The notes under the pieces are model-generated. The model saw nothing but the letters and a program-made list of their open reading frames with translations. It had not been told where the DNA came from and did no database searches. Positions 7,795 to 64,000 of a stretch of 64,000 nt of DNA are shown piece after piece. Origin of the DNA: Macrostomum lignano (Eukaryota); contig NIVC01000025.1 in assembly GCA_002269645.1 (NCBI GenBank), positions 544,417 to 608,416 on the forward strand. The letters are read 5' to 3'. The first letter of the stretch is position 1; every line of letters starts with the position of its first letter. The translations under genes and the position numbers were made by a program.

Positions 7795-8814
7795 GGCTCA
7801 GCGCTGGTCTGTGTCCGGAGAACTTAGAAAAAAAATCTGCTAATGTGGCTCCAGTTTCAGTGCACACTTACTTAAATTCTGGATCAGTGGCCAGCGATCG
7901 ATAAAGAATTTCTTTGCTCTGCCTACAGTATGTTGCATTGCGCTGCATGGCCAAGTCTTGCTCTGAGTACAGTGACTTGTCCAACTGTACGGGAGTCGGT
8001 TAGGTGCAACAATAGAAACGAAACGATCTGCGTCCCCTCAAGCCAGAGTCTTCAACTCTTCCTGTTAGCCCGCAGTAGCGCCTTTCGCCTTCTTGGTCCG
8101 GTTTTTTATAAAATTCTCCCCCCCCCCTACTTTTCAGTCTATGCAAGCCCTGAGCAGGGGGGGGGGGGCTGTGCAAGTCAGTCAGACAGCAAGTCAAAGA
8201 ATAAAGCATAGCCACCGTATATGGCAGAGAATTTCTCACGTAAATCGATTCAGATCTGCAAAGACTGCAACAGCCAGCAATTAAGTCGAAGTTAATCTGT
8301 GCGAATAATTCTACTAAAATTAAATCTGTACTGAATCATGTTTATTTATGATACAGATACGCCACACTCAATAATGTACCGAAATGAAGAGTTAGAATTT
8401 CTAGCGAACTTGTGAAAGGCTGCAAATAAAGTAATACCGCAATTTACAACAATTACAATTACAATTTCTGTCGAGAGCCATGTCTAAAGGAGACATCTTC
8501 ATGATTAAACTAAACACAAAGAACTAAGGATCGAGAAGGACAGGTGGAAATATACGTAGAATAGTGTAACAACTCTGGATAATTGTGGGCAATTCTTTTT
8601 GAAGACCTAATTTTGATTGAAATTTATTATCAATATGGAAGTTCGTAAATTCTTTAGTATTGTTAGCACTATATAGACTATTTCTCATCATCTGAGCCAG
8701 CTTGAATATGCATCAGTGGCGGTACGCAGAGGGGACATCGGGACGTCGAGGCCACTCGACAAATGACGGGAGATTAACTTTTATCACCTCTTAAAAGCGG
8801 CATTGACCGACTTA

Positions 8815-9005
8815 AGAGACAGGGGTAGGGGCACCTAACAAGAGACAGAGGGCACCCACCAAGAGACAGAGGGCGCCCACCAAGAGACAGAGGGCACCTA
8901 ACAAGAGACAGAGGGCACCCACCAAGAGACAGAGGGCACCCACCAAGAGACAGGGGCGCCCACCAAGAGACAGAGGGCACCCACCAAGAGACAGAGGGCG
9001 CCCAC
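8815..9005. repeat. About 21-bp minisatellite (caagagacagagggcacccac)
   Basis: About 9 units downstream of the TRPC copy 2 stop; related to the 20-bp unit at 9733-11128. Confidence 0.9.
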
Positions 9006-9091
9006 AAAGACACCAAATATACATGTAGATTCGATAATACTAAAGTCCTCTGAAGGTCCTTGATCAGCAATGCATGCGACAATTCAATCGG

Positions 9092-15000: not shown

Positions 15001-16408
15001 GCAAAGAACATACACTTAGCAGTAGAAAATTGCCAGCAAAAAGTGCGTGAGGTACGATTTGATCTCAAGTGAGCTGGACTCTTTAGGTCTATCAAAAAAT
15101 TGGAACAGAAATCCAAAGTGCAAGTCCGATAAGTTCTAATCAGTAAAATCCTTTACAATCATTTAAAATCAATGGATCTCATCTAAATAAAAACAAGAAA
15201 ACAAGTTTTATGAATAACCGCTGAAAATTTTCGAGGTCGAGAAAAATTATGGCACGGCTGTTATGAATTGAAACGCTGGCGCAACACCTTCATTGAAGCC
15301 TTCGGCGACGCTCACACAGGGTGTACACAAGGACTACTCAAGTAGAAGGACCGGAAACTACGTTTCTTAAAAAATGTTTATGAGCCTTCTTTTCGCCGAA
15401 AAATACACTACTTAGATAGGAAGGTTCATTTTTTCAGCACAACAATCGTTATTGCTTTCGATAGGAGGCGGACCCAAATGTTCATCTTTTGGTATGTTGT
15501 GCCTTTCTTATGGCTCTATTGATACTTATAAAGCTTTTCGTTCAGAAAATTAGGATTCCATGGTAATTTCTTATTCTACGTACAATTGTACATGTCATGT
15601 GCCTAAAAACCATTAAAATGGCACAGCTCGACTCATTGGTTCTATGAATCTGTTTTATCATCTCTGTTACACATTTTACATAGTCAGCTAAGGATGATAA
15701 AACAGATTCATAGAACCAATGAGTCGAGCTGTGCCATTTTAATGGTTTTTAGGCACATGACATGTACAATTGTACGTAGAATAAGAAATTACCATGGAAT
15801 CCTAATTTTCTGAACGAAAAACTTTATGAGTATCAATAGAGCTATAAGAAAGGCACAACATATCAAAAGATGAACACTGGATCTGCCTCCTATCGAAATC
15901 AATAACAATTGTTGTGCTGAAAAATGAGAAATTCCTATCTCCGTAGTGTATTTTTCGGTGAAAATCAGCCTCATAAGCATTTTCTAATTTTACCGCTAAG
16001 CTTCTCAATATTCACTAGAGGACTCCTGCCTACTAGACCTTTATTTTAACTCCGAAGTACTTGAAGCTCTTTGCAACCAGTCAGCGTCACCTGATAGCAA
16101 CGAATATCCTTAGAGATGCTTTTGCAGACGCTGCAGCCGCAGTTCTCCGCGTCCCAATGGTAGAACGGCAGCCGGATCTGCTGCTCCCGGACCAGATAGC
16201 TCACAATGGCTGGCCGCTTCTCATTGATGGCCAGAATGAGGCAAGCCTGCCAGTTCACGGTCTCCTTTGTCACCTTAGCAACTAACAGCTTCAGTTTGGC
16301 CAGCTTATTCAATCGAATGCAGTGTCTGAGGTTGGCACTGAGAATCTCGCGGACTCCAGCTCTGATCTCGCTGTCCATCGATTGGTTCAGCAGAGACAGC
16401 GGATCCAT
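9092..16408 (-). CDS. TRPC-like cation channel, copy 2 (5 exons, about 709 aa)
   Basis: Exons 16408-16091, 14151-13860, 13780-13082, 11837-11496, 9570-9092 (2130 nt). Intron positions and phases are the same as in copy 1, with the same motifs. Confidence 0.85.
9733..11128. repeat. 20-bp minisatellite (agacaggggcgcccgctaag) in the last intron of TRPC copy 2
   Basis: About 70 tandem units. Confidence 0.97.
11990..12170 (+). mobile_element. tRNA-derived SINE, family B (CORE-SINE-like)
   Basis: B box gggttcgatccc, then tgtgttcttgagcagaacacttaactctg...ctgtaaaatggg, which resembles the CORE/MIR central motif. Confidence 0.55.
12503..13059 (+). mobile_element. Non-coding retroposed insertion with a 10-bp target-site duplication and a (TAAG)-like tail
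   Basis: GGTGCTATCA at 12493-12502 and 13060-13069 flanks a GC-rich block ending gtaagtcaagtaagtaaaaaatt. Confidence 0.6.
14425..14825. repeat. (AGAGG)n pentanucleotide microsatellite
   Basis: Direct reading. Confidence 0.97.
15368..15987. repeat. Long inverted repeat (arms about 295 bp, about 30-nt spacer); foldback-like
   Basis: About 15535-15662 is the exact reverse complement of about 15693-15820; the outer arms match with scattered mismatches. Confidence 0.9.
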
Positions 16409-16873
16409 GCTTGAGCAGTTCTCAACTTGGGGAGAAATCTTTCAATTTGGACAGTCCGGAAAACGACCGCATGGCTTTTAAGTTGACTTTTGAGACTGGT
16501 CCAGACTGGACCGGCTATTTTTAACTGCAGGATTTCGGTTCATTATTGTCTCGAATCGTATCCCCAGCTCTGGATTTGACTGGAGTAGGAAGGGGGGGGG
16601 GGGTAAGGGCTGATCGCCCCACCCGCATCGATTGGTTATTATTGGGCGTCATGAGACTCGGCTCTGATCGCGGATAAGAGAGAAAGAAAGAGAGAATTTA
16701 TGCCGGAAAACACAGCGAAGGAGAGAGAGAGAGAGATCGAGAGAGGTCAACGCTCAATAGTTGCTTCCAAAAGCAACGATTTCTTTCCCCGACCGGATTC
16801 AATATTGTTTGCCAATTGAAGGTCGACTGCAGGCGGAGTGGGGTGATCTTCCTTTTTATCATGGCATTTTTAG

Positions 16874-26508: not shown

Positions 26509-46747
<20,239 letters not shown>

Positions 46748-47789: not shown

Positions 47790-50408
47790 TCACTGGGCCA
47801 GAGCACCCATGGGGTCCCAGGCGGGCAGCACGATGGGATCCTGTTCCAGCACGGCTCGCATCTTGTCGGTAAGGCGGGCCTTGTCGATGGCCACCTCGTA
47901 GACGTATTCGTCGAACCAGGCGTCCGTGACCGTCAGATAGCCTTTCAGTCCGTAATCCTGGCTCCAGGAGTTCTCAACTCGCCATTTGCCCGGGCTGCCG
48001 GCGGCGGGGTCAGGCGGGGTCACACCTGCGGAGAACAGGTATTGAGAGAACAGGTTCTCAATCAATATTTCATATGAGAAAACAGGTTCTCAATCAATAT
48101 CTCACATGAGAGAACAGGTTCTCAATCAATCTCACATGAGAGAACAGGTTCTCAATCAATATCTCACATGAGAGAACAGGTTCTCAATCAATCTCACATG
48201 AGAGAACAGGTTCTCAATCAATATCTCACATAAGAGAGCAGGTCCTCAATCAATATCTCACATAAGAGAACAGGTTCCCCTGCATCAAATATCTCAAATG
48301 AGAGAACAGGTTCTCAATCAAATCTCACATGAGAGAACAGGTTCCCCATCAACCTAATTCCCCCCAGGCCTTACCAGTCAGCAGCATAGCGTGAGTCATA
48401 AGCGAGTCCCCATAGAGCAGGCGCTCCTTCTTATCCATAGTGTTGAGCTGCAGCCCGCACAGCAGGTCAAGCCTGTGCAGATTGGGGTCAGCCAGACCGG
48501 CCGTCCTGCTGTGACCTTTGCTCACGTGCGACCCGAACCATACAGGCAGTCGATCGCGTAAAGCATCGGTTGCTAGGCGACGCAGTTCCTCTGATGGCAG
48601 ATTAACGTAGAGCACCCGTCTGGCGCCCTGCATATTGTTGAGCATGTCCACCGTCATTAGGCGATAGTAGGGATTGCGCGGATCGTTGACCAGGCATACC
48701 TGTTGCGGTTGAGTTTAGTTGAGGGGTGAGTAATCATATTGTCTCTGTAATAGCAGGTCAGATATGCTGAATTTAAACTGTGATGTAGCACAAATGTGTA
48801 AATAAGGACCATAGAATATTACTGGTAGGTAAGCCTTAGATCACCGATTCTAGATCAGACTCTAGATCATAGACTCTAGATCACGGACTCTAGATAATGG
48901 ACTCTAGATCATAGACTCTAGATCATGGACTCTAGATCATAGACTCTAGATCAGACTCTAGATCATGGACTCGAGATCATAGACTCTAGATCATAGACTC
49001 TAGATCATAGACTCTAGATCATGGACTCTAGATCATGGACTCTAGATCATAGACTCTAGATCATGGACTCTAGATCATGGACTCTAGATCATAGACTCTA
49101 GATCATAGACTCTAGATCATAGACTCTAGATCATAGACTCTAGATCATGGACTCTAGATCATGGACTCTAGATCAGACACTATAGATCACGGACTCTAGA
49201 TCATAGACTCTAGATCACGGACTCTAGATCATGGACTCTAGATTATGAGCTCTAAATCTTGAGCTCTAGATCGTGGACTCTCTAGATCATGGACTCTAGA
49301 TCATTGACAATAGATCACGAGCTCTAGATCACAGACTCTAAATCACGGCCTCTAGATCTTGAGCTCTAGATCTTGAGCTCTAGATCGTGGACTCTCTAGA
49401 TCATGGACTCTAGATCATTGACAATAGATCACGAGCTCTAGATCACAGACTCTAAATCACGGCCTCTAGATCTTGAGCTCTAGATCACGGACTCTAGATC
49501 TCAGACTCTAAATCACGGACTCTAGATCATGGACTCAAGATAATGAGCTCTAGATCATGGACTCAAGATAATGAGCTCTAGATCATGGACTCAAGATAAT
49601 GAGCTCTAGATCATGGACTCAAGATAATGAGCTCTAGATCATGGACTCAAGATAATGAGCTCTAGATCATGGACTCAAGATAATGAGCTCTAGATCATGG
49701 ACTCAAGATAATGAGCTCTAGATCACGGACTCAAGATAATGAGCTATAGATCACGGACTCAAGATAATGAGCTTTAGATCACAGACTCTAGATCATGAGC
49801 TCTAGATCATGGACTCAAGATAATGAGCTCTAGATCACGGACTCAAGATAATGAGCTATAGATCACGGACTCAAGATCACGAGCTCTAGATCACAGACTC
49901 TAGATCACGAGCTCTAGATCACAGACTCTAGAGCATGAACAATAGAAATCTGACATTAGAAAAGACTGCAGAACAGTCACCGAGGAATGAATGGATTTCA
50001 GACAACAGGTCTCACCTGAGCGCCAAGGTCAACCAGCGGTTTTACGTGCTCCTGATAGAACTGCAGTGGAGTCACGGGCCCGATGCGGCGATACTTGTTG
50101 CCACCGGCTGCGGCGTCGGCCTCGGCGGTGGCGCCTCCGGCAGAAGCCGCCGTGGCCGCGTACTCGAAGGTGAACTTGGCCGGCGGGCGGCCGATGGCGG
50201 CGCAGCAGAAGCGGAACAGCTCGGGCAGCAGGTCGGAGTCGATGTAAGCGCGAATCTGGTCGGCTGTCTGGCCGGCAGCGTGCAGATCCCGGATGCGCTT
50301 GGCGCTCTGCCGGTGCCAGGTGTTCAACCAGAAATTGAACTGCAGCGTCTCCTGCGAGACCAGCGGCTCAGTCCAGCACTGCTTGGGCACGACGCCGTGC
50401 TTCTCAAC
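47790..50408 (-). CDS. BLMH: Bleomycin hydrolase (peptidase C1B), last three exons; the 5' half with the catalytic Cys is not in the window
   Basis: Exons 50408-50016, 48699-48375, 48025-47790. Motifs VEKHGVVPK, LVNDPRNPY, PVWFG, SLMTHAM (His), WRVENSW (Asn), C-terminal LPAWDPMGALA. Confidence 0.92.
48050..48345. repeat. About 30-bp minisatellite (gagaacaggttctcaatcaatatctcacat), BLMH intron
   Basis: Direct reading. Confidence 0.9.
48840..49935. repeat. 14-bp minisatellite (actctagatcatgg) with 28-bp higher-order units, BLMH intron
   Basis: Direct reading. Confidence 0.93.
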
Positions 50409-50469
50409 CTGGGATTTATGATTGGATAATTATCCCATTATTACCTACCACGTACCACAAATATTTAAA

Positions 50470-51375
50470 AACCCTATCGAAATCTCACAAATACCCCTCA
50501 ATGATATTAAAATCCCAAAAATATCCCGAAATCCCATTGAAATCCAACAAACATCCCAAAACCGATGGAAATCACACAAAAATCCTAAAATACCATTGAA
50601 ATCCCACAAATATCCCATAATCCCAGTGAAATCAGACAAATATCCCAAAATCCTATTGAAATCCCACAAATACCCCAAGATCCCATTGAAATCCCACAAA
50701 TATTCCAAAGTGCCGCTGAAATCCCTAAAATATCCCATAACCCCATTGAAATCCCACAAATATCCCAAACTGCCATTGAAATCCCACAAATATCCCAAAA
50801 TCCCATTGAAATCTCACAAACATCCCGAAATCCGATTGAAATCCCACAAATATTCCAAAAACCCATTGAAATCCCCAAAACATCTCCAAATCCCATTGAA
50901 ATCCCACAAATTACCCCAAGATGCCATTGAAATCCTAAAATATCCGAAAATCCTATTGAATCCTACAAATATCCTAAAATGCCATTGAAATCTCACAAAT
51001 ATCACCAAACCCTATTGAAATCCAACAAATATCCCTAAATGCTATTAAAATCCCAAAAATACCCCAAAATGTCATTGAAATCCCACAAACATCCCAAAAT
51101 GCCATTGAAATCCTACAAACATCCAAAAATCCCATTGAAATCCCACAAATATCCCAAAATACCATTGAAATTCCAGAAACATCCCAAAATCCCATTGAAA
51201 TCCCACAAATATCCCAAAATGCCATAGAAATCCCACAAATATCCCAAAATCCCATTGAAATCCCACAAATATCCCAAAATGCCATAGAAATCCCACAAAT
51301 ATCCCAAAATGCCATTGAAATCCCACAAATATCCCAAAATGCCATAGAAATCCCACAAATATCCCAAAATCCCAC
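50470..51375. repeat. 30-bp minisatellite (cccattgaaatcccacaaatatcccaaaat), truncated at the Polinton left end
   Basis: Direct reading; the array stops mid-unit at tcccac|AGTAGT. Confidence 0.93.
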
Positions 51376-52666
51376 AGTAGTATAGGAAAAGTAGGTTTGA
51401 GCGCAACCCATTTTGAAAAATCACAAAAAACAGATAAAAATCGACTAAAAACAGGTGAAAATTGTCTGAAAACAGTGATTTTAGTGATTTTTCAAAAGTT
51501 TCGAAAAATTGCTTTTTGCGCGATTTCGTGAGTAAAACCACAAGAAATTTTTGATTCGTGGGTTAAAATAACCTATTTTCAGGTTTCATCATTTCAAAAC
51601 TAGCATCAAATTTAATAATAGTCTTTTCTCCCATTGCATAACGCCCTTCAATAAGCCAATCTTACTAGCTTTGCTTTTAACGATCAGTCAGCTACCATCT
51701 ATGCATAAAAATTGTCCACTCGAGGCATACAATGCTTTTACAAAAGTCAATAATTTGCTCCTGCACATTCGCTTTGTCCCGAGGCTTTGAAATGGCTTTA
51801 ATGCTGTTCTAGATTTGTACTTAAAGATAATAGAAGACATTCAAGAACATGGAGCGCTAATTTAAATTTTTCGTGGCATGCATACTCGACTACTAGAGCA
51901 CTAACCGCAGCACTCAACATTTCTATTGGCTGCCAAAATTTCTGCCAAAACCAAAATTTTTGCCAAAATTTCTGCCAAAAAGTGTTTGGTTTTGGCATCC
52001 AATAGGAGTGGCTCGTGCAAATCTTTTGTGTTCACCCTCTATCTAGCTGTAAAAAAAGACATGAAGTGGGCCACGCAAGTTACAAACGAACAATGCTCTC
52101 GCGACCCTACCTACGGACGATTTCACTAACCCTTTTCTAAATTATGTATCTTAAAAATGGAACAAATAGCAGGAGAAATTCTCCTCAAAGCAATTTTTAT
52201 ATTGTGACTCAGCTTTAACGTCGTGCGAAACCCACACTGAGTGAAGCGTATGGTCAAATAGGCTCTCGCAGGAACTCACCAAACTAACTATACATAACCG
52301 CAGCACTGAACATTTCTATTGGCTGCCAAAATTTCTGCCAAATCTTGCGACCAAAATTTCTGCCAAAAAAGTTTTGGTTTTGGCAACCAATAGGAGCGTC
52401 TCATGCTAGTCTATTGTGTTCACCCCCTTTCTAAAAAGACACGAAGCGCACCACGTTACAGAATCATGCAAGATAAGAGACTATACAATAGGCGAACCAC
52501 TAGAGTATAATGGAGAAGGTCTTTTTTGATACTATAAGCACCATATCCAACTTAGTAAAAGACAAATCTACCTTTCATAGAACAGGCAGGTGTAGCAGCA
52601 GGCTCTATTGCTACAGCAGTTAACGCAGCCTAAGTCTGTAGATTACTTAAATTTATTTTTATAAAA

Positions 52667-54025
52667 ATGGCCTTCAGTAAACCATTATTTCTAGGTTCTG
52701 CATTGGATATTCAGTCAGCTATAACAAAACTACCACCCATCTTCGCCACTGGAAAATATCCTGGCGAATTTCATATTCCAGGGTATTCTTTCACTGGCCC
52801 AGGTACAAATTTAGACAAGAGACTCAATCCAATTACAGACTGGCCTCGGTATGATAGTCTACCAATTAATCCAATTGATTGGACTGCTTACTATCATGAC
52901 AAAAGCTATAGAGATGCTGAAAAGACGTCTTCAACTCCAGAGGAAGCCCTAGCAAAGAAGCATATTGCTGATGAAAAAATGATAGCTGATTTAGATGCTA
53001 TTCCAACCAGCGACTTGTCGGTAAAGGAGAGACTCATTAGAAATCTAGTAAAGCGTATTATCAATGCTAAAGTTCGGTTTGGATTAGGAATTCATACTCA
53101 CAACCCCAACAATTGTATAGACTGTCTAACAATTTATGGTAAGGGTCTTAGCTATGAAGATGCAGTAAAATTGCATAGGGAATACAGAAAGCCAAGAGTA
53201 TTTAGAAAAATGATTCACTATGCAAAAGACACAATTTGGCATGCAGATATCATTATCCTACCGCCCGAAAGAGGTTACAAATATGCTCTCACTATCATAG
53301 ATGGTTTTACACGTTACGCCTGGGCAGTTCCTTTGAAAACAAAGACGGGAGCGGAAGTTGCAGAAGCTTTCCAAAAAGTATTTAAGGAATCAGGAAGACG
53401 ATCAGAGAGACTTTGTGTAGATGAAGGCAAGGAGTTTTATAATCAGCATATGTACAAGCTATACTCGTTTTCAAAAGACAACATTAGAAAGAAGGATGAA
53501 AGGGGTGAATATATTAACAAGATGTTTTCAATTTATGGCGAGTCCAAGAATGCAATGATTGAGAGGTTCAATCGTACTCTCACAAATAAACTCTGGTTTG
53601 AATTTGATCTACAGGGTAATCAGAAGTGGCTCCACACATTGCCAGCTATTGTTGAAAAATACAACAACACAATCCATTCTGAGATTCTGATAACTCCTTC
53701 AGAAGCATCTAAACATCCTGAGCGAGTACCAAAGCCAACTTTCGAGTATTCAAATGAGAAACCAAACTTCAAAGTAGGTGACAAAGTTCATATCTATAGA
53801 TATAAGGAGCACTTTGAAAAGGGTCGAAGAGGATATTGGAAAATTTCAGAAGTGTTTAGGATAAAGAAAATAGTTTACTCCAATCCCATAACCTACATTA
53901 TTGAGGATGAGAATGGAGAAGAAATCATTGGATCATTTTACAAATCCCAGCTTCTACCAGCAAATTTTTCAACTAAAAATGAGCGCCTATCGAACAAACT
54001 GCAAACGGGCGAAAGGTCAGATTGA
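52667..54025 (+). CDS. Fusion ORF: parvovirus VP1u-like phospholipase A2 (PLA2X) plus retroviral-type DDE integrase, 452 aa
   Basis: PGYSFTGPG (Ca loop) and D..AYYHDKSY (catalytic HD); integrase WHAD, LCVDEGKEF, MIERFNRTL; C-terminal FKVGDKV...PITY...GEEIIGSFY. Confidence 0.88.
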   Translation: MAFSKPLFLGSALDIQSAITKLPPIFATGKYPGEFHIPGYSFTGPGTNLDKRLNPITDWPRYDSLPINPIDWTAYYHDKSYRDAEKTSSTPEEALAKKHIADEKMIADLDAIPTSDLSVKERLIRNLVKRIINAKVRFGLGIHTHNPNNCIDCLTIYGKGLSYEDAVKLHREYRKPRVFRKMIHYAKDTIWHADIIILPPERGYKYALTIIDGFTRYAWAVPLKTKTGAEVAEAFQKVFKESGRRSERLCVDEGKEFYNQHMYKLYSFSKDNIRKKDERGEYINKMFSIYGESKNAMIERFNRTLTNKLWFEFDLQGNQKWLHTLPAIVEKYNNTIHSEILITPSEASKHPERVPKPTFEYSNEKPNFKVGDKVHIYRYKEHFEKGRRGYWKISEVFRIKKIVYSNPITYIIEDENGEEIIGSFYKSQLLPANFSTKNERLSNKLQTGERSD

Positions 54026-54400
54026 AACGTCTGATTCACAACTACTAGCTGATAAAGAGGGTGAAGGAATTGGTGATATGATCAGTGGTGTCACAAACTT
54101 TTTATCAAATCATGGAAGTAAAATTGTGAGTGGAGCTGATGCAATAGGTAAAACAGCTACCACAGCGAAGAACATATTCGATGCGAAGAAATCATACAGT
54201 GACATGTCTAAAGCAGGTGAGGAACTGGAATATATTAAAAAGAAACGTAGAGAAAAGAAGCAAAGAAAAGAATGGAAGAAGAGCAACAGATAGCTTCTCA
54301 ATCAAATAAGGCTATTCAAGATATTGTTAAAAAGGCTCTAGGAACAGCAGAACAGTCTCAAGTGTCTTTGAGACAAGGCAATGGTTTGAAGAAATTCTGA
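53979..54400 (+). CDS. Putative virion core/membrane-active protein; one frameshift at about 54270
   Basis: ATG 53979. EGEG followed by amphipathic IGDMISGVTNFLSNHG and a Lys-rich stretch. The second frame MEEEQQIASQ...QGNGLKKF* joins by a single-base correction. Confidence 0.55.
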
Positions 54401-54408
54401 CCTTAAAA

Positions 54409-54861
54409 ATGAGCGAGAAAAACACTGAAGCAAGACTCAATCGATATGTTCGAGAGGGAAAACCAAGATATGTTACTGTAAATAAGCAAAAGCAATATCT
54501 TTCTAAAGAGAAGATTCGAGAATTGCAAGAGAAACAGAAAGAACATGAAGGTGGAATAATTCCTCTATTAGGCTTACTACCAGCAATATTGGGTGGTATC
54601 GGAGCAGCCTCCGGAGTTGGTACAATGATTGCAAAAAGTGTTAATACAGCCAACAATGCTAAGCATAATAAGACAATAGAAAGCATTGAACGACAAAAAC
54701 TAGAAGAGTTGAAAAAGGCTCAAGGGAGTGGAGTGTTAGTTGATGCGGCTAAAAGAGTCGAACAAGTACCCAGCGAAGCAGTCAAGTGGCTGCTAAAGAC
54801 TTTTAAAGTTGAAAAGGAGAAACAGGGTAATGGGATAATTCTTAGACCTCACGAAGCTTAG
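54409..54861 (+). CDS. Putative virion core protein with an adenovirus pX-like hydrophobic motif, 150 aa
   Basis: HEGG-IIPLLGLLPAILGGIGAASGVG resembles the adenovirus pX segment MRGG-ILPLLIPLIAAAIGA; further QGSG and QGNG motifs. Confidence 0.6.
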   Translation: MSEKNTEARLNRYVREGKPRYVTVNKQKQYLSKEKIRELQEKQKEHEGGIIPLLGLLPAILGGIGAASGVGTMIAKSVNTANNAKHNKTIESIERQKLEELKKAQGSGVLVDAAKRVEQVPSEAVKWLLKTFKVEKEKQGNGIILRPHEA

Positions 54862-54881
54862 TTGAAATTTCTCGTATAAAA

Positions 54882-56247
54882 ATGGAGAACAAAAAGGATA
54901 TACTGAACCTATATGAGGACAAAACTTTTAGCTTTTTCAAAAAGAAAGAAGACTATATTAAGATTTCTCCAACACCAGGTAGCACTAATAATCTCAATGT
55001 TGCAGGAGGTCAAATAGTTCATGAAGTCAATTCAACAGAGTCATACATTCTCATGTCAGAGGCATTCGGTTGTATAAAATACTCAATAACACAAAGAGAT
55101 AAACACCGACTTGAATACGAACATTACTCTAGAACATAATTGGCCTATGAGACTTTTCTCTCAACTCATAGTTGACATTGGAGGAACAAAGAAAGTCTAT
55201 AATGATCCTGGAGAGTATGACACAATCTTAAAGTCCGTAATGTACTCAAAATTGATGAATGAAGTTGGAGAAGCATACGGATGGATTCCAGACACTGGAG
55301 ATGCTGGGACTGTTTCTGATATAGCTCTAGCAAACAACGCAGATGCTGAAGCTGTGAGAACTGCAGCAATCGCTATGAAAAATAGACTCAATAAGAAGGA
55401 TTCGAATACTGGATACATTAGGAGGCTTGAAAATTATAACAATGTCACTAATGCTCCAAACAGAGGTGGAACAATCAAACTATCATTAACACCCCTCATT
55501 GGGTTCCTTGATTGGCAGAAGATTAGCAAAGGAATTAAATATAAATTCACATGGACAAGAAAGACTAACGATGCTGAAATTTTCTTTGGAGCTGCCGGGA
55601 CGGAAGCTAAGTTAACTATTAATAGCTTTGAGATTTGGATCCCTGCTATTAGTTTGTCACCCAGTGCTGAAGCAGCTTTTCTAAAATCACTCAACAAGGA
55701 CATTACAGTATCATTTCCAGAGAGGGTAACGGTTCCGCCACAACTCATTCAAGGAAGTCCATATACATGGAACATAGCCAACATCTCCAATATGCCACTT
55801 GCAATCTTTGTAGCTTTCAAATATGACGTAAACAACCCATCATATATAGTTAATGATCACAAGTATGTGTCTTACAAAACTGGAGCAAATGCAGTGAAAA
55901 TAACCCAGCTTCAAGTCAGATTAAATCAGGTGATGTATCCGAATGATTATGTTGAAATTGATCCAGTAGCTCAAGACATTCACAGAGCATATGAAATGTA
56001 CGAGGACATCTGCAGCCGTTTCGGTGTAACTCCACCATTTAATAAACAAGACTTTCTAACAATCTATCCAATATTCTGCTTTGATCTAACAGCTCAGGAT
56101 GAGTTTCTTGTCAAGAGTGGAGTGAATATTCAATTATTTATCAAGAAGTCAACTAATGTTGAGCTGACTGCTTTTGCACTAATTCTTGAACAAACAAAGA
56201 ATGTAATAAAAGTTACCAGTGAATATCAAATGACCCGCGTCGAATAA
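54882..56247 (+). CDS. Major capsid protein (double jelly-roll, Polinton PY/hexon-like), about 454 aa after correcting a +1 frameshift at about 55102
   Basis: ORFs 54882..55139 and 55111..56247 join on removing one A (gataaacacc). Motifs ITLEHNW...LFSQ, LIGFL, FEIWIP, LAIFVAF, LQVRLNQVMYP, YPIFCFDLT; size and position fit. Fold assigned by motif recall, not computed. Confidence 0.75.
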
Positions 56248-56268
56248 GGTCATTTTTTCTTTTTTTAA

Positions 56269-57040
56269 ATGCCCAAAGTAAAATTTCGGCATGATCCTAT
56301 TTTCCCTAATCCTCTTTTATGTTGTATTATCGGCGCTACAAATACGGGTAAAACATATTTACTATTCCATATTCTTACAAGTCCTGAAAAACTAGTTGAC
56401 TTTAATGAGTTAGTTTTATATGTTCCCAGAGCATCTCAAATGGATCCAGAGTATCAGTTTCTAAAATGGCTTTGAAAATGGTCTCCCACCTTCTCTTATC
56501 AACTCACTCTATCATGTCTACCAGGTGAGTGAGGATGCATCTCCTGAAGATATTAGACATATTTGTCGAGAGGCAGCCAACCCTGGTCGAGTGCAAAGCA
56601 CATCAGAAAATTCAGAAGTAATAGAGAAAATTCCTGTCACTCTTTCCCATACTCCAAATGAAGAAATTTTTCATAATGGACTAAAGACATGTGTGATATT
56701 GGACGATGTTTTGGGAGAGGCTAATCAAACATTTCAGGAAAGTCTGTTTCAGAGAGGCAGGCATGGAAACTGTTGTGGTTTTTATCTAGCTCAAAATTTT
56801 ACCAAACTAGATCGCAATACTGTCAGGGAGAATACGACATGTTACATAATCTTTAAACAAAAAGATACAAACTTAAATCACATTGCTAGAAATATAGAAA
56901 CGAATTATGAACCCGCTATATTCAAGGCTAAATGTAGAGAGGCTTGGAAAAAGAAGTATGGCTATATCTATATAAATACAAGAGCTGATGAGGATGAGCA
57001 AGATTTGTATAAGGATGTTCTAACTAAAATCCCATTGTAA
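56269..57040 (+). CDS. FtsK/A32-like genome-packaging ATPase, about 256 aa after correcting a +1 frameshift at about 56465
   Basis: Walker A GATNTGKT, Walker B CVILDD, FQRGRH, LAQNF...RENT; frames join as cta aat ggc ttt gaa. Confidence 0.85.
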
Positions 57041-57042
57041 AA

Positions 57043-57772
57043 ATGACTAATGAATATATAAGAGAACTCATTAATTTAGCAAAGCAGCGAGAAATGTACA
57101 AATCCAGAAATGATGCTCAACGCTATTTGAAAATTGGAGAAGAGAGTTTATATGCAAGAGTGGCTCCATTAGCTCAAAAACCTGTCACAGAAAAGCTCGA
57201 TGAATTTATTGATGTCAATGCCAACCTTGTTGATAAACTTCAGAATCAAAAAGTTCCAGTTCCGCAATCAAGTACACCAAAAGGCCGATTTGAACCCCTA
57301 GAAGTATTTGACAAAATAATTGAAGAAATTGGAAAGATTCAATAACTCAAAGACCAGCGCCTAGTATACGGATTCAAAAAACTGATGCTGGATATATATT
57401 TGGATCATCTGTAATAGATGTTGAATTCCATGAACAAGGTCGAGACATCATTGTCAACGAATTTCGAATGCCATTTTCTGAAGATCTTGAAGAGTTGTTC
57501 AAAATGCCTAAAGTAACTGAAAATGGTGAAGAGCTGAAGCAATTCAAGATGCAAACATTGCAGGATTATGTTAACATCATTGAACATTGTAAAAATCCAG
57601 CGGCCAAATCAAGTGGGAATTATAAGCAAGCAGTAAGGATATTGAAAGATAATCCACCAGGATATCGAGTAAAACCGGGATCTGGACTCAGTGAAAGAGT
57701 GTTAACTTTATTAGCCGCCAAGCAGAAGGACATAATAATGTTGATAAAGAGCTAGCAGAATTACTTGCTTAA
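57043..57772 (+). CDS. Conserved Polinton hypothetical protein with two -1 frameshifts (about 57327 and 57726)
   Basis: 57043..57345 joins 57468..57755 through an open intervening frame (NWKDSITQRPAPSIRIQK...). Corrected C-terminus reads GSGLSERVLTLLAAKQ-GHNNVDKELAELLA*. Confidence 0.55.
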
Positions 57773-57774
57773 AA

Positions 57775-58562
57775 ATGGAAAAAGAAATAGAAAAAGTCAA
57801 CATCCTCTTGAGTAAAAAGTTTCAACGCACATTTGACTTCTTTTCAATTAAAAACCCATTTCGACAAACTCTAGGCACTCCTATAAATTTGTATGAAGAT
57901 CGAGAATACGAAGCTGGTATAAAAAAGTTTGCAGTCTTTGATGCTATTAACAATATTGAAGGAGGCAATAATGAGTTGCGATACTCGAGGGATAGTGGTA
58001 GAACATGGAAAAAATAAAGATTCAAGCGGGTCTTGGGAAGTTAAAAGTCTGTCAAGCGAGATTCAAAGATTGCTAACAGCTGCAAATGATTGGAAAGAGG
58101 GGGCTATTGTTTTCAGTGCAAGCCTAGACACGCGTAGAGTTGAGTTACGGTTAGCCACAGATTATCAAGTTGATTTCAGGGATGCACATTCCAATAACTT
58201 TAGAAGACTGTTGGGATTCAATTCGGAAGTGTATTTGAAACCATTTGAGAGAGCTCCAAATCCAGCTCGGATAGACGGAGCTAGAAGTGCGATCATGGTT
58301 CGTTGTCTAAATACAAAGGGGGTTTATCACTGATCCAGCTAATGGAAATCATTTAATTGATAAGCAAATACTTCTTTCAATTCCATCGTTCTCTGTCCCA
58401 ATGGGAAGTAAAATTATTCAAGAGCCCGCAAATCCTGTGTACCTACCACTAACTACAAACATGTTGAGCACATTCGACTTTGTCATCGAAGATGAGTCTG
58501 GTGTTCTATACGACTTTGATGGCGAGGAAATATTTATAAATCTTCACATACGACAAATATGA
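57775..58562 (+). CDS. Minor capsid (penton-like, Polinton PX) protein, about 262 aa, three frameshifts (about 58012, 58030, 58320)
   Basis: Reconstruction: PINL...YEAGIKKF...INNIEGGNNELRY...WKKIKIQAGSWEVKSL...LLGF...IMVRC...GSKIIQEPANPVYLPL...DESGVLYDFDGEEIFINLHIRQI*. Confidence 0.7.
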
Positions 58563-58571
58563 GTGTTAAAA

Positions 58572-59003
58572 ATGAGCGAAGCTGAGACATGGAATGCATT
58601 TAAACAAAAGTTTGGGACTGACACTACGACTAATATTGATCTGATAAATTGGGCAAAATATCTCAAGTTAAAACCATTTCGCTATGCCATGAGAGATGAA
58701 ATTGTTGATTTACCACAGTATGGTTACTTTATGACAAATATTCACACTTCGAAAGAACGGGGTATACATCATTCAGCTATATTTTCAGCTCCTGATAAGG
58801 TTTATTTTTTTGATTCCTATGCACTACCGCCCACACTGGAAATTATGGAAAAGTTTAATCACACAAAGAATAGAATATGTGGAGACATGGAAGAACAAAT
58901 TCAAACTTTTGATAAGAAATATTGTGGTCAAATGTCGCTGTACTTTTTACACCGAATCGATAAAGGAGATAGCTATAACGAAATTTTGCAGCAATTAAAA
59001 TGA
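58572..59003 (+). CDS. Adenain/Ulp1-like maturation cysteine protease
   Basis: N.....RGIHHSA (His), YFFDSYALPP (Asp), IQTFDKKYCGQMSLYFL (Gln, Cys). Confidence 0.85.
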   Translation: MSEAETWNAFKQKFGTDTTTNIDLINWAKYLKLKPFRYAMRDEIVDLPQYGYFMTNIHTSKERGIHHSAIFSAPDKVYFFDSYALPPTLEIMEKFNHTKNRICGDMEEQIQTFDKKYCGQMSLYFLHRIDKGDSYNEILQQLK

Positions 59004-60408
59004 GTTACAAGAATACTGCCAATCAATTTGGTTACTCGTCAAATTCAAATGATATAGCACCTGGAATAACAATAGCGTTAGCTGATGATCGATACATCAA
59101 TGAAAATGAAGGATATAAGAGAGAGGAAATAGATAATTTATTGTTAGCAAAGAGAAATGTTTCAGACTCTTATTCAAAGGAAGATAGTGACGCAATGAAT
59201 ATCACCATGCTACAATTAATTGACGATGCTCATGGGCGCGTAAACAATGTCTACACAAAAACCGAAACTGACACTAAGATGTATTCTAAAACTGAGATTG
59301 ACACTAAGATGTATTCTAAAACTGAGATTGACACTAAGATGTATTCTAAAACTGAGATTGACACTTTGTTAGCAGAATGGCAAGGTACTGCGGGAGGTAC
59401 AGAGAGTTCGAAATTAGTCAATATTCTTTCATTACTGACTTCAAACGCTTCCCATTCTGACATGAAAGTGACCGCTTCTCATAACTCTTCAGCAGCATAT
59501 CATGTTGCAGATTCAAACCCAGCTTCAGATTGGAGCAGTGCAGATGACTCAGACAAGTGGATACGATTTCAATTTTTGAAAAGAGCTAGGAAAGTTGTAG
59601 AGATAAAGTTGGAAGGAGAGGTGTGGCCTGGTTGGTCTGTTAGTGTGAGCCTAAATGGAACAAACTGGACACCTGTTGAACAAAGTGCACCCATTGAACT
59701 ACGAAGGGCAATGCACATCTTAGGAAAAAAATACCCAATCCCTCATATTATTTCCATTATTCTCTTAATTTTTCTGGTTCCGTAAAGCTTACAAAAGTTG
59801 AATTACTTGAGAGACAAACAGTGGTTAATGATTTAGTGTGGCCTATAGATAGACTTCAAGCTGTACCAAAGCTATACGTAGACAATGCACTTGAATCAGT
59901 GGAGCTGCGACTAAGGCGGGGACTAGGTTTCAAATCTTATACAGGATATATTCCCTCACTAGCAACACGTCAAAACTATAGAGAAAGGGGTTTCAATGTA
60001 GCGTCATCAGGAGCATTTGAAACGTCAGATAATTGGGGTTATATAGTATCTAATTCAGAATGGGCATCGAGGAATGAACCCAATTCTTACATTGAAGTAC
60101 AACTTCCCGAGTCTATTCAAATTTGGAAATTCGGATTGAAAGGAACCAAAGCAGTAGGTAGTGAAATTATAAAAAATCAACCAAAAAGTTTTATTCTGAA
60201 AGGGAGCAATAACAAGAGAGACTTTAGGAATATTTTTTCTACCGAAAACGCTGGTTTAGTTCCTGGAGTCATGAAATATTTTGAAGTAGCTTCCACCGAA
60301 AAATTCTCTGTTTATAGAGTGCATATTAATTCAGCCACTGAAGGATCAACCGTTCTTATTGTTTCAGGCTTTCAACTTTATCCGATTTTAGACATAATCG
60401 CCACATAA
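59000..60408 (+). CDS. Putative fibre/receptor-binding protein: Y.K.E.D stalk repeats plus two F5/8 type C (discoidin)-like domains, about 469 aa with one -1 frameshift at about 59698
   Basis: YSKTEIDTKM repeats (30-bp unit, about 59255-59365). The alternative frame from about 59702 (KGNAHLRKKIPNPSYYFHYSLNFSGSVKLTKVELLERQTV) runs without a stop into ORF 59821..60408. Confidence 0.6.
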
Positions 60409-60410
60409 AA

Positions 60411-61151
60411 ATGAATGAAAAAAATGAACACATCTATCCTGTGGTTGAGCTGCATGAAGCAGATTTGAGGGAGCGGGACTATTTCAATCAGAGAAAGGGT
60501 GAAATCAAAGGCAGTATTGAATGCATTACTAAAGATCTTACAATTTATAGCAAAAAGGTAAAAAAGTACAAACGGCAAAGTAGCAGGATAAATTGGATCA
60601 ACATTGTGACAGGAAATGTAAGTCTCTTGGCTGCTACAGGAATTGGCATAGCAACATCGATACTGACATTGAATCCCTTAGTTATTGGAGTAGTAATCGG
60701 GGCAATGAGTGGTTTTGAAGCTGTAAAATCCACGTCGTTGTTTGCAACTGTGAAAATTCATTGCCAAAAGCAGAAGGCAAAATACATTGTTCTCAGAGAT
60801 CTGGCAAATCAATATAGAGAGAGATTGTATATTTACTCCCAAAAAGCAGTTGATGATTATAGATTAACTCTTGAAGAGGTTCAAGCAGCTGCTGCAATTT
60901 ATTCAGAATACAGAGAAAAAAGAGATCAATTGTTAGACGCCTGTGTTGCGCCTGAAGAAGTTAACCATTCGGAAGTCGTTGATAAAATCCTCAAAGAGAG
61001 TAGACTTGGTCATTCAGCGAAGGAAAAAATTAAAAAGGAATTACTAGAAAAAGATCTGAGAGAAAAATTGGGTCTAGCTGATAAGCCAAAAGAGTACTCG
61101 GCAACACTCAATCTTCAATCAAATGCTCCAAGTGCACCTCCCTACAATTAA
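60411..61151 (+). CDS. Coiled-coil membrane protein with a hydrophobic hairpin and C-terminal PSAPPY, 246 aa
   Basis: Intact ORF; hydrophobic segments IVTGNVSLLAATGIGIATSIL and LVIGVVIGAMSGF; ends SNAPSAPPYN. Confidence 0.75.
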   Translation: MNEKNEHIYPVVELHEADLRERDYFNQRKGEIKGSIECITKDLTIYSKKVKKYKRQSSRINWINIVTGNVSLLAATGIGIATSILTLNPLVIGVVIGAMSGFEAVKSTSLFATVKIHCQKQKAKYIVLRDLANQYRERLYIYSQKAVDDYRLTLEEVQAAAAIYSEYREKRDQLLDACVAPEEVNHSEVVDKILKESRLGHSAKEKIKKELLEKDLREKLGLADKPKEYSATLNLQSNAPSAPPYN

Positions 61152-61176
61152 TATTGTATAATTTTTTTTCTAGAAA

Positions 61177-61482
61177 ATGGCTGCAATAAAAGTTCTCCTA
61201 AATGCATACCAAGATGAAATAAAGCGCATTGATAGAGAAATACAAATAAATAACTTTAGGGAGGTGCGTACACATTGTGGAATAATAGAACCGGATTATG
61301 GATATATTGATAAATTAAGTGATCGCAAATGTTTTCTTGAAACTGCTATTGTTTTTGCAGAAGCATTTATTGAAGATGAAATCGACAAGTTAGTTAAAAA
61401 AATAAAAGAGATCAGGAAGTATGTTGAGTTTAATGATCAGCGCAAGAAACTTCTTAAGCAATTGAATTGTTTGGTTTTTTAA
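61177..61482 (+). CDS. Hypothetical protein, 101 aa
   Basis: Intact ORF with an A-rich start, tail-to-tail with pPolB; no recognisable motif. Confidence 0.5.
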   Translation: MAAIKVLLNAYQDEIKRIDREIQINNFREVRTHCGIIEPDYGYIDKLSDRKCFLETAIVFAEAFIEDEIDKLVKKIKEIRKYVEFNDQRKKLLKQLNCLVF

Positions 61483-61484
61483 AC

Positions 61485-64000
61485 TTATTTGAATCCATGA
61501 GGATGTGTTATAATTCCATTGGATTCAATGTATCTTTTGTCATCGAAAGGACTAATAGCCTTCTTATTTTGTTCTATTAAAGTCATGTTATGCTTGTCTG
61601 ATCTAAGGCTATACACTTTCCTATAGACTGGTTCGTTATAATCAAGTAGTATATTTCTATAGTCATCATATTGTACATGATGCTTCACTGTTGACTTTGA
61701 GATTCCCTTTAATTTTTTCTCTTCCTTCCCTTCCTTTTGAGTGCTGACATAAACTGTTTTAAATGAATATGCTTTCGATCTTAGAGCGGTTACTTCTGTC
61801 ATTATGCAATCATATTTTGCCAATTCATCCTTGAATGTTCCCAGCTTTCCACAATTATTCATATCATGTAAATCAATCGGAAAATTTTTAGTATACAGCG
61901 ACAAATCGAAATGCTCCTTCATCTGAGCAATGTCTTTATAAATATTTTCTGTCTTTATATGAAGAATGAATGAGTCGGTGTCAGAGGTAACAATCTCAAC
62001 ATTATCCCCCCATTTGGACTTGAAAACTTTGTAAAATGTTTCATACATATGCAATTTCGAGAGATCCAGAATTGCTTGTCCAGCGTATGTTGGCTTTGTT
62101 CCAAGAGGGATATTCTTAGGTCGCTGGTGAATGCAAATTAGATTTTCATTGAAGATTTTGAAGTCTATGAAATCTGGCTTGGATATTATCTTAGATATCT
62201 CATCCTCACTTGTCAGCAACTCAAATCGCTTTCTCTTTTTAACATCCTCCATTGTCTTGCCAAAGATGCTTACATTAAGCATTTTGAACTGATTGTCTTC
62301 GAACTCAATTTTTGCTTCTTTTGCCTTCTTTCTTTCTATCGTATTAAACTCGATATACTCCTTTAACCATGGCTTTTCATTGAATGAAATCGTCCTATGT
62401 ACTTTTGTCACTTTCAAGCCCATCTCTTCATAGAATCGCAATAGCTTATGATGTACGATATATTTTGTTTTATTTTTTAAATTAAGGATCAATTTAGGAA
62501 CTTTTCCAATCTTTTTCATTTCGACTTCTAGACATCCTTTCTGATATTCACTCAATTCACTTTCTGACACAGTTGTACTTTCAGGTGCTAATGGGAAGGC
62601 ATACGTTTTCTTTTTTGATTCTTTTGTATATTCAAGATCACATTCAACAAGACAGCCCCGTCCTTCAGGAGGATTTTTATAATAGTTGGAATCAGCTTCC
62701 CATTTAAAGTCAGAAAAAGGAAGGGGTTCCAACATACTATAACCATAGAGATTTGTACAATCAACGTAAAGTAAGTAGGAAGTTGGTTTTTCTAAATCAT
62801 AGCCTGGAAGATAAGGATTATTTGCCTTTACATATCGTGACCCTAGAACTCCGCTAAATCCACCTCTTATTCCACTATCAATCATATGAATCATATCGAT
62901 ATCCGCCAGCAAGTCTAACTCAACTTTACTTTTCTTCAACCCAGCATTCCAACTCAATCCTGGTGCTGAGAAGCATCTGGCTGGATCAATCTCAAAGTGT
63001 TTCAGGAAGAATGTTCTATAGCGTTCGAATACATCTGCTAATAATAGAACGTCAACCTTAAGATACAGCATCATATAATCCTCCAAATTCTTACAATTAA
63101 AAGTTTTCCACATTTGTTTTGCAAAATCATATTCATCTGAAGAAATGTCTTCACCTTTCAACCTCGAGTAAAACTCTTTCAATGGTGGTAACTCAGTTTC
63201 TGCTAATCTTCCAAAGCTTCTGATATACTCATATGGGAATACACCCTTGCGCTTAACATATTGAAAATCGCTGTCGTTTTTAAAGTATTTCTTTGTTATG
63301 ATGAAGTCTTCATCCTTCAGGGACTTTGCGCAGATATCCAGCGAGGAAGCCAAGAACCTGTATGAATCTAGGAACCTCAGTACTACTTTGTTACATCCAA
63401 ACTCGAGAGAAATGTACTCTTCAGAAGTTTTAGATAGTGGAGGAAATAATTTATCCTCCATGGTCTCTTTGCTCTTTAAGTGTGTCACTAAGAAGTGAAA
63501 GTCATAGTGGGATCCATTCTGGAAGTAGATTGGGATTACTCGCTTCTTACTCTCGAGAGCATTGCAGGATTTACAGGCAGCCCCTCTATATTTGCCACTA
63601 TAGTGACAATGTTCTCTTACCTTACCTAGCTTAAGTGTAAAGTCATTTTTACAATTCGCACATTTTTCAGCCCTGTAAAACTCTTTCCATTGTTGCTTTG
63701 TGATCTTATATTTACTTATATTATTGCTCTTGTTCAGACATTTTTTGCACCAAGATTCTATAGTAACTTTACTGTCAATTTCCTTCACATGCACCTTCAT
63801 ATCTGGAACCATATCAAACTCCTTCTCGCATATGTAGCATTGTTTAGCCTTACAGAAAGAAGCCTCCTCTTGCGCTGTCAAATTATGATTAATATGCTTA
63901 GGCTCCTTCAGACCATTCTTAATTTGTTGATAAATTTCAACCATTCTATCAACATATTTTTCCTTGGCATCTGTGCCACAATATCCTTCATACTTCGATT
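61485..64000 (-). CDS. polB: Protein-primed family B DNA polymerase with an endonuclease VII-like Zn-finger region; N-terminus beyond the window
   Basis: The frame is open to the window edge (SKYEGYCGTDAKEKYVDR precedes Met 63944). Motifs CYIC, CANC...EHCHYSGKYRGAACKSCN, NGSHYDFHF, FLDSYRFL, KGVFPYEY, DVLLLADVFE, YVDCTNLYG, KMLNVSIFGK, SDTDS. Confidence 0.95.
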   Translation of the reverse strand, partial: SKYEGYCGTDAKEKYVDRMVEIYQQIKNGLKEPKHINHNLTAQEEASFCKAKQCYICEKEFDMVPDMKVHVKEIDSKVTIESWCKKCLNKSNNISKYKITKQQWKEFYRAEKCANCKNDFTLKLGKVREHCHYSGKYRGAACKSCNALESKKRVIPIYFQNGSHYDFHFLVTHLKSKETMEDKLFPPLSKTSEEYISLEFGCNKVVLRFLDSYRFLASSLDICAKSLKDEDFIITKKYFKNDSDFQYVKRKGVFPYEYIRSFGRLAETELPPLKEFYSRLKGEDISSDEYDFAKQMWKTFNCKNLEDYMMLYLKVDVLLLADVFERYRTFFLKHFEIDPARCFSAPGLSWNAGLKKSKVELDLLADIDMIHMIDSGIRGGFSGVLGSRYVKANNPYLPGYDLEKPTSYLLYVDCTNLYGYSMLEPLPFSDFKWEADSNYYKNPPEGRGCLVECDLEYTKESKKKTYAFPLAPESTTVSESELSEYQKGCLEVEMKKIGKVPKLILNLKNKTKYIVHHKLLRFYEEMGLKVTKVHRTISFNEKPWLKEYIEFNTIERKKAKEAKIEFEDNQFKMLNVSIFGKTMEDVKKRKRFELLTSEDEISKIISKPDFIDFKIFNENLICIHQRPKNIPLGTKPTYAGQAILDLSKLHMYETFYKVFKSKWGDNVEIVTSDTDSFILHIKTENIYKDIAQMKEHFDLSLYTKNFPIDLHDMNNCGKLGTFKDELAKYDCIMTEVTALRSKAYSFKTVYVSTQKEGKEEKKLKGISKSTVKHHVQYDDYRNILLDYNEPVYRKVYSLRSDKHNMTLIEQNKKAISPFDDKRYIESNGIITHPHGFK

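Follow-up and report, generated by a model that had tools for sequence, protein, structure and literature searches.

A Polinton of Macrostomum lignano holds the empty target of a sister-copy group I intron whose nuclease likely cuts a word the elements avoid

The 64,000 nucleotides of DNA of the laboratory flatworm Macrostomum lignano analysed here (the window; GenBank assembly GCA_002269645.1, contig NIVC01000025.1, or C25, positions 544,417 to 608,416 of the forward strand) end within an integrated Polinton, of which positions 51376-64000 are the left 12.6 kb; the remainder of the ~17.4-kb element lies beyond the end of C25. The element opens at 51376 with an AGTAGT tip, is cut off by the contig end inside its pPolB gene, and has a GC content of 0.365, compared with 0.483 in positions 1-51375. 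Its 12 genes are closely packed within 52667-64000, in agreement with an earlier, sequence-only reading of the same DNA, which had described 12 packed intronless genes in an AT-rich block. Sister copies elsewhere in the genome have a group I intron at a point where the window copy is uninterrupted. The interpretation developed below, to which we assign a probability of about 0.6, is that the window Polinton holds the empty target of this intron and that the intron's nuclease likely cuts GGNCC, a word purged from the genes of the elements except at the interrupted Gly-Pro codons.

The left terminal inverted repeat (51376..52277, plus strand, 902 bp) begins with the AGTAGT tip, contains one GGNCC, at 52068, and is preceded by a 6-bp target-site duplication, TCCCAC (51370..51375, plus strand), which lies inside a minisatellite intron and is repeated after the right tip on contig C176. 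The insertion site is intron 1 of a host gene that, by its motifs, probably encodes bleomycin hydrolase; exon 2 is in the window (49998..50429, minus strand), exon 1 lies past the element on C176, and two element-free copies of the gene, with the site empty, are present on C3592 and C3593. The duplication and the empty host sites refute the contamination that the sequence-only reading had allowed for. Other host genes of the window, with minisatellite-filled introns, lie at 4054-16441 and 26900-46310 and are presumably, again by their motifs, two tandem TRP-like ion-channel-like genes and one alpha-glucosidase-like gene.

A full-length copy of the same subfamily, termed A, is present on one contig; it is 17,395 bp long, carries 14 genes and ends in 902-bp repeats that are perfect. 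Copy number and divergence, which the sequence-only reading had proposed to check, were assessed with a polymerase probe: of 40 scored, 14 matched at 99-100% and a fifteenth at 95%. Nine paired 6-bp duplications were found for A (TCCCAC and eight others), plus one unpaired end, implying about ten separate insertions; several pairs are split over different contigs, so some contigs must be chimeric. The window element is thus a young integrated Polinton/adintovirus with multiple recent copies. Altered forms also occur, e.g. a 7.9-kb internally deleted A copy (C1095:9713-17573) that retains the two ends, has a separate duplication (TAACCC) and keeps the first gene, described below, but has lost the capsid genes and most of pPolB. 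Three further elements (C3314:12807-26445, C1157:303462-317100 and C1638:176141-188744) have ends that are 94-97% A-like, inverted repeats as long as 3 kb, flanks that are inverted rather than direct, and a weak tnp2/DUF1258 transposase-like open reading frame (ORF) inside.

The first gene of the element (52667..54025; plus strand, as for all genes to 61482) encodes a 452-residue fusion of a phospholipase A2 (PLA2) domain (PF08398), with a GPG calcium loop and a His-Asp dyad, to an rve integrase (PF00665; 39.5 bits against a cut-off of 32.6) with its DDE triad, the two being joined by a G-x-G linker. The PLA2-like accessory domain of the sequence-only reading is therefore present, but as part of the integrase and not as a separate gene. 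Polinton integrases are described with a C-terminal chromodomain (Buck 2024, PMC11071296); no Pfam chromodomain match was found in the integrase here, although some homologues carry PF00385. Among the best 120 of 409 homologues, 78 carry both the PLA2 and the integrase Pfam domains, and a hydrophobic-G-x-G linker is present in 62 of the 68 fused homologues that have the PLA2 motif. We infer that the viral protease would cleave this linker and that both halves would be packaged.

The genes that follow are largely those of a virion. A 164-residue protein with G-x-G motifs (53907..54400) has no family match and is likely, as judged from its sequence, a core or membrane-active protein; a 150-residue protein (54409..54861) is presumably a pX-like core protein, as judged from a motif and its position, there being no significant family match. 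Next are the double jelly-roll major capsid protein (MCP; 54882..56247, 454 residues in sister copies; PF21738 and fold), an A32-like packaging ATPase (56269..57040, 257 residues; PF04665, 25.6 bits against a cut-off of 22.8), a conserved 237/243-residue protein without a family match (57043..57755), a probable penton (57775..58562, 263 residues), a probable adenain-type cysteine protease (58572..59003, 143 residues), a fibre-like protein (59000..60408, 469 residues) with short repeats and two F5/8 type C domains, and a 246-residue membrane protein (60411..61151) with a hydrophobic stretch at about residues 63-105 and a C-terminal PSAPPY. A 101-residue gene (61177..61482) is the first of the right arm that is specific to subfamily A, the cassette shared with a second subfamily ending just before it. 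The last gene in the window, on the minus strand (61485..64000), comprises the C-terminal 837 residues of pPolB, with an endonuclease VII insert; the sister copies have 1275 residues, with Exo I-III, Pol A-C and Cys/His motifs, as in a protein-primed PolB with an OTU-like N-terminal domain, but no profile match. Beta adintoviruses are set apart by a PolB unlike PF03175 together with gasderminX and cupiennin-like genes; PF03175 was not matched by the pPolB of the element in the Pfam scan.

Matches above the Pfam cut-offs in the window are rve, Phospholip_A2_4, DJR-like_dom and Endonuclease_7, with Pox_A32 and F5_F8_type_C above them in unbroken sister copies. A model of the MCP, made from a natural unbroken sister copy, has a mean confidence (pLDDT) of 79 and matches best the mavirus MCP (E 1e-12), with resemblance also to the Sputnik and iridovirus capsids; on this model the MCP folds as a double jelly roll. 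An MCP that is 99% identical is catalogued under Macrostomum lignano. The jelly-roll prediction of the sequence-only reading holds less well for the penton, the model of which has a pLDDT of 53 and a poorly modelled jelly roll; what it does yield is an insertion domain (residues 56-160) matching capsid chains of EhV-201, PBCV-1 and mavirus (Z 8.3, 7.5 and 5.9; ~3 Å root-mean-square deviation over 90-97 residues). Minor-capsid matches of the penton in BFVD are weak (E 0.02-0.04) and it has no sequence match in the PDB, such that its predicted identity is partly supported. Likewise, the probable adenain-type protease was recovered by its His, Asp and Gln/Cys motifs, but not by any profile in Pfam, PHROGs or NCBIfam, nor by a match in the PDB. 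The membrane protein has a weak, below cut-off match to SLATT (NCBIfam) and none to gasdermin; its PSAPPY (61127-61148) presumably resembles viral late domains, and 8 of 33 homologues contain P[ST]AP. The terminal repeat-rich ORFs of A and of the second subfamily alike have PPPY or PPTY. Between 52667 and 61177, AAA precedes 10 of 11 plus-strand start codons and TAAAA eight of them, and several starts abut or overlap the preceding stop, a pattern that suggests coupled translation or a shared promoter motif.

Six of these genes are broken in the window copy at eight places, i.e. near 54253 (164-residue protein), 55101 (MCP), 56465 (ATPase), 57339 (237/243-residue protein), 58008, 58030 and 58317 (penton) and 59705 (fibre-like protein). 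For each, one or more of 16 other natural copies have the gene whole, and the PLA2-integrase frame is whole in 6 of 17. The breaks are absent from short-read contigs of all four runs at four of the eight places and of one to three runs elsewhere, and of 140 short indels over 12 copies, 85 are private to one copy and 85 lie in homopolymers. Because the short-read contigs lack the breaks and sister copies are whole, the breaks are most likely assembly errors.

The second subfamily, B, was reached through contig depth, which is two to three times higher for the cassette than for the pPolB stretch, and a membrane-gene probe duly revealed copies that depart from the window sequence at 61144. Subfamilies A and B share the 8.4-kb cassette from integrase to membrane protein at 95-99.9% DNA identity (0.1-4.9% substitutions); the B ends, of ~585 bp, are unlike those of A, and the identity of the two pPolBs is 48% for the catalytic half and 24% for the N-terminal half. 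B also carries an 832-residue primase-D5 helicase (33 full-length matches among 40 scored), and contig C2232 holds a complete B element of 18,718 bp with its own duplication within the single contig. Two replication arms are thus used with one virion-integrase cassette. Between A and B, seven cassette genes have a non-synonymous to synonymous ratio (pN/pS) of 0.17, and the MCP shows 14 synonymous and three non-synonymous differences; together with the Pfam matches and the MCP model, this purifying selection bears out the sequence-only reading of a full virion gene set in an integrated Polinton/adintovirus; the entry and egress functions that it proposed are putative. In an MCP-ATPase tree A and B are interleaved, a result that is unreliable as chimeras are possible inside the shared cassette.

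In some short B derivatives the membrane-protein gene comes directly after the terminal repeat, the polymerase and primase-helicase being kept and the integrase and capsid genes lost (from C540:312131, C2848:130536, C1090:53928 and C67:348665 on, and C273:212006-213781); judging from their gene content, these would need a helper. The C1090 derivative has as neighbours (L060:7196-8387) ORFs for a TBP-like protein and a deoxynucleoside kinase, which may be a piece of a large DNA virus. A third Polinton family adjoins the C67 derivative (L064:5446-8826), with a 1127-residue pPolB matching PF03175 and HNH; depletion of GGNCC in its polymerase gene is not significant.

In B copies the PLA2 gene is interrupted, after the Gly codon and before the Pro codon of the GPG calcium loop, by an insert of 864-891 nt. 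The corresponding window sequence, GGCCC at 52796..52800 (codons of Gly44-Pro45), is the sole GGNCC in the coding DNA of the element, and is intron-free at 52798/52799, where the sister intron lies. The insert matches Rfam RF00028 at 91 bits (cut-off 50, E 1.5e-23), and the genome has at least 28 matches over the cut-off, each coinciding with a copy of the insert (of 29,353 candidates at first look, 28 were scored); there is no Rfam match in window positions 50000-64000. All 28 full-length inserts lie at the one codon boundary (17 by exact ends, 11 by BLAST). In the 17 with clean ends the last base of the 5' exon is U and that of the intron is G. P1 folds with a U.G pair, and P7 pairs in eight to nine of nine copies, where GACUU/AAGUC replaces the Rfam consensus GACUA/UAGUC by a compensatory pair. 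The insertion is in phase 0, both exons are open in 15 of the 17 clean copies, and the intron 3' end is joined to exon 2 in contigs of three of four short-read runs. The intron is accordingly annotated as predicted to self-splice, which would restore the GPG frame.

Of 30 intron loci, 28 have B-type ends, two are unclassified and none is A-type, while the 25 intron-free matches comprise 14 A-ended, four B-ended, two unclassified and five diverged fragments. The intron is therefore present in some B-ended copies and absent in others, and is absent from all 14 A-ended copies. No repair scars were found at the target: among the five diverged intron-free matches, three have lost it by Pro-to-Gln change and two keep the site. 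A junction of window positions 52791 and 60388 in contigs of two runs represents a deletion, the left end of which is 5 bases from the GGNCC target. Thirteen of 80 metagenome loci were scanned without a group I intron being found, few of the 80 holding PLA2; the intron core finds its nearest matches, of 70-81% over 89-155 nt, among IMG/VR contigs, where several lie in giant-virus-type capsid genes.

A 228-residue ORF in the intron, and a 211-residue variant of it, match the restriction enzyme family RE_Eco47II (PF09553) at 30.1 and 27.3 bits, respectively, against a cut-off of 25.9. About 165 residues of the ORF lie outside the ribozyme core, and the family match spans most of that length. Fifteen of the 30 loci have the ORF unbroken, and its pN/pS of 0.17-0.39 between diverged variants indicates purifying selection. 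Its neighbours in a feature atlas, where they have a family, are all restriction enzymes. No relatives were found in JGI metagenomes, phages, plasmids, the PDB, PHROGs, NCBIfam or 125 viral intron loci, and no companion methyltransferase was found among the proteins scanned, a set outside which two small left-arm ORFs (138 and 143 residues) fall. Eco47II has been linked to GGNCC (PMC10305163; here and below, statements on cited papers apply to excerpts of them), and the intron nuclease likely cleaves the same sequence, as far as its family membership and the composition of the elements can indicate.

That composition is striking. The 18.7-kb B element has no GGNCC (20.7 or 11.5 expected), and the 17.4-kb A element has three (16.9 or 6.6 expected), namely the target and one per end repeat; in each element GGNCC ranks lowest among 16 spaced palindromes. 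When the encoded proteins of 17 genes (19.6 kb) are kept constant, there are no unforced occurrences, compared with 8.8 expected (P 1.5e-4). Since Gly-Pro is always encoded by GGN-CCN, the calcium loop is unable to lose GGNCC silently. As controls, 13 other Polinton-like loci have 183 occurrences (228 expected) and the host part of the window has 108 in 51 kb (112 expected under a Markov model). Internally, a retroelement with reverse transcriptase and RNase H in an A-copy pPolB (L010:1350-4148, on C3459) holds 15, and a degraded B copy (C620) holds eight. A clade-wide avoidance of Gly-Pro itself was considered and dropped, the integrase homologues being equally Gly-Pro-poor at all ranks (3/17.9, 3/16.9 and 4/23.7).

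The proposal that best accommodates these observations is that copies would replicate by protein priming and then be packaged, with PLA2 (for entry) and integrase carried in the particle after the viral protease cuts the G-x-G linker. On splicing of the intron the GPG calcium loop would be regained. When two elements co-replicate in one cell, the nuclease could cut an intron-free genome at the Gly-Pro codons, its own genome being spared as the intron splits GGNCC, so leading either to homing or to elimination of the rival; the intron would thereby substitute for a methyltransferase as protection. The nuclease would have to be silent while the element is integrated, because host DNA is rich in GGNCC. 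The elements themselves are most likely endogenous polintoviruses that continue to amplify. Taken further, this describes an animal virus 'restriction-intron' system, with a five-base enzyme as homing nuclease, immunity by intron splitting of the last site, and operation in a bilaterian nucleus, which drives competition between co-resident polintoviruses sharing a capsid cassette; this extension we advance tentatively, at somewhat less than even odds.

Several observations weigh against a GGNCC-cutting intron nuclease with an empty target in the window. The Pfam score of the nuclease is just 4 bits above the cut-off, its atlas neighbours include enzymes of other specificities (HinfI, ApaLI and EcoO109I), and no covariation signal was found in nine aligned introns. 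With 108 sites in 51 kb of host DNA an active five-base cutter should be toxic, and long targets are described as a requirement of homing endonucleases (PMC3943268, Stoddard 2014). The A terminal repeat retains GGNCC, the word is absent in one of the 13 control Polinton-like loci, and 3 of 80 unrelated viral loci are far under expectation. Homing into A was not seen, none of the 30 intron loci being A-ended, and 22 of 25 intron-free copies retain the target GGNCC despite 15 unbroken nuclease ORFs in the genome.

Some of these points would be explained were the ORF a conventional long-site homing endonuclease, with the depletion of GGNCC arising from mutation bias or from another virus's nuclease. 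Enzymes of the PD-(D/E)xK type do act as homing endonucleases in phage and bacterial introns (PMC3984707), a long site would account both for host tolerance and for the lack of homing into A, where the flanking bases differ, and GGNCC is depleted in some unrelated viruses. Against such a reading stand the match of the ~165-residue region to a restriction family over most of its length and the coincidence of the depleted word, the site of the family and the insertion site, and we regard it as unlikely. The enzyme could instead cut GGNCC mainly as a viral weapon, used to break down host DNA or against a large DNA virus in the same cell; the intron would then be retained for protection, and homing would be a side effect. 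Restriction enzymes of chloroviruses are thought to degrade host chromatin (PMC7019647), the intron-free A arms are GGNCC-poor too, and a large virus of the host is hinted at by the TBP-like and deoxynucleoside kinase genes next to one B copy. Against this, whole intron-free subfamilies have spread recently without the enzyme, and the chlorovirus enzymes have adjacent methyltransferases, none of which was seen here among the proteins scanned; a primary role as weapon seems quite improbable.

Two further alternatives concern the elements rather than the enzyme. Were they purely intracellular transposons, with the capsid genes as passengers and no particles formed, the deleted derivatives without capsid genes at several loci would be expected, as would the lack of a close relative in IMG/VR (no locus with a window protein; four distant loci). 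The selection on the seven cassette genes and the MCP, the intact MCP fold and the presence of relatives (63-79% identity) in public assemblies make this unlikely. An origin of the block, or of the A/B mosaic, by contamination or misassembly is suggested by contigs C2071 and C3459, which pair ends of different insertions, but is hardly credible in view of the nine paired duplications for A and the one within a single contig for B, the empty sites, the occurrence of both arm junctions and the intron junction in short-read contigs, and the recovery of the stretch from 20 runs of seven studies of one organism. Thus, the reading in which the window Polinton holds the empty target of a GGNCC-cutting intron nuclease is retained. 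If it is correct, a short-site enzyme made specific through avoidance of its site would be a new homing route and a new form of self-protection against one's own restriction enzyme, and the avoidance of GGNCC, in implying repeated co-replication, would provide indirect evidence on the viral phase of animal Polintons.

The Polinton gene set by itself is ordinary, that of a new member of a known family. The undescribed lineage proposed by the sequence-only reading is weakened in that Orthopolintovirales insertions in Rhabditophora are already reported (preprint 10.1101/2025.04.19.649669) and the PLA2-integrase fusion is widespread among homologues; the supplements of that preprint and of 10.64898/2026.10.13.758929 could list these elements. 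The intron is another matter. Group I introns have been reviewed from bacteria, phages, viruses, organelles and the nuclear rDNA of fungi, plants and algae, with those of animals being in mitochondria of early-branching lineages (Hausner 2014, PMC3984707), a range outside which at least 28 copies in a protein gene of bilaterian nuclear DNA fall. Titles and abstract openings of part of the openly accessible literature revealed no group I intron in a nuclear gene of an animal or in an animal Polinton, and no PLA2-integrase fusion; in the excerpts of Yutin 2013 (PMC3671162) and Buck 2024 (PMC11071296) the fusion is likewise unmentioned. Homing nucleases in elements linked to entomopoxviruses (PMC11296320) are described without such an intron.

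Adintoviruses and Polintons as described previously (PMC8502044, PMC11071296) share with the present elements terminal repeats, pPolB, rve integrase, ATPase, MCP, PLA2-like and small membrane-active genes, and probably the protease and penton, as well as reassortment of Alpha and Beta modules; a group I intron is not mentioned in the excerpts of either paper. By contrast with the fusion found here, PLA2X is a gene of its own that is typical of Alpha virion modules (Starrett et al. 2021, PMC8502044, one supplement of which has no flatworm entry that we could find), and here PLA2 is paired with a pPolB missing PF03175 and an integrase without a chromodomain match. Exchange of replication modules in polintons is likewise precedented (Jeong et al. 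2023, PMC10748475; Barth, Ha and Aylward 2026, 10.64898/2026.10.13.758929), including near-identical morphogenetic genes with different replicases, an added AEP-SF3 replicase and nuclease inserts in pPolB. The present case differs in that a single animal genome holds several copies of each form, the ends switch along with the polymerase, and the integrase follows the virion cassette, whereas Barth et al. found DDE integrases tied to pPolB. Group I introns in protein genes of eukaryotic double-stranded DNA viruses are known from protist Polinton-like viruses, where three protist groups only are reported (PMC12220804), and from chloroviruses (via PMC7019647); the host here, however, is a bilaterian animal, and the introns of the cryptophyte viruses are of 309-376 nt with no ORF annotated, compared with 864-891 nt and a nuclease ORF here. 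The nuclease resembles Eco47II-family enzymes by its match to PF09553 and differs from them in having no methyltransferase partner seen among the proteins scanned. Like the PD-(D/E)xK homing endonucleases, e.g. I-Ssp6803I, it is intron-encoded, but it would combine a predicted short site with genome-wide avoidance of that site, where they use a long one.

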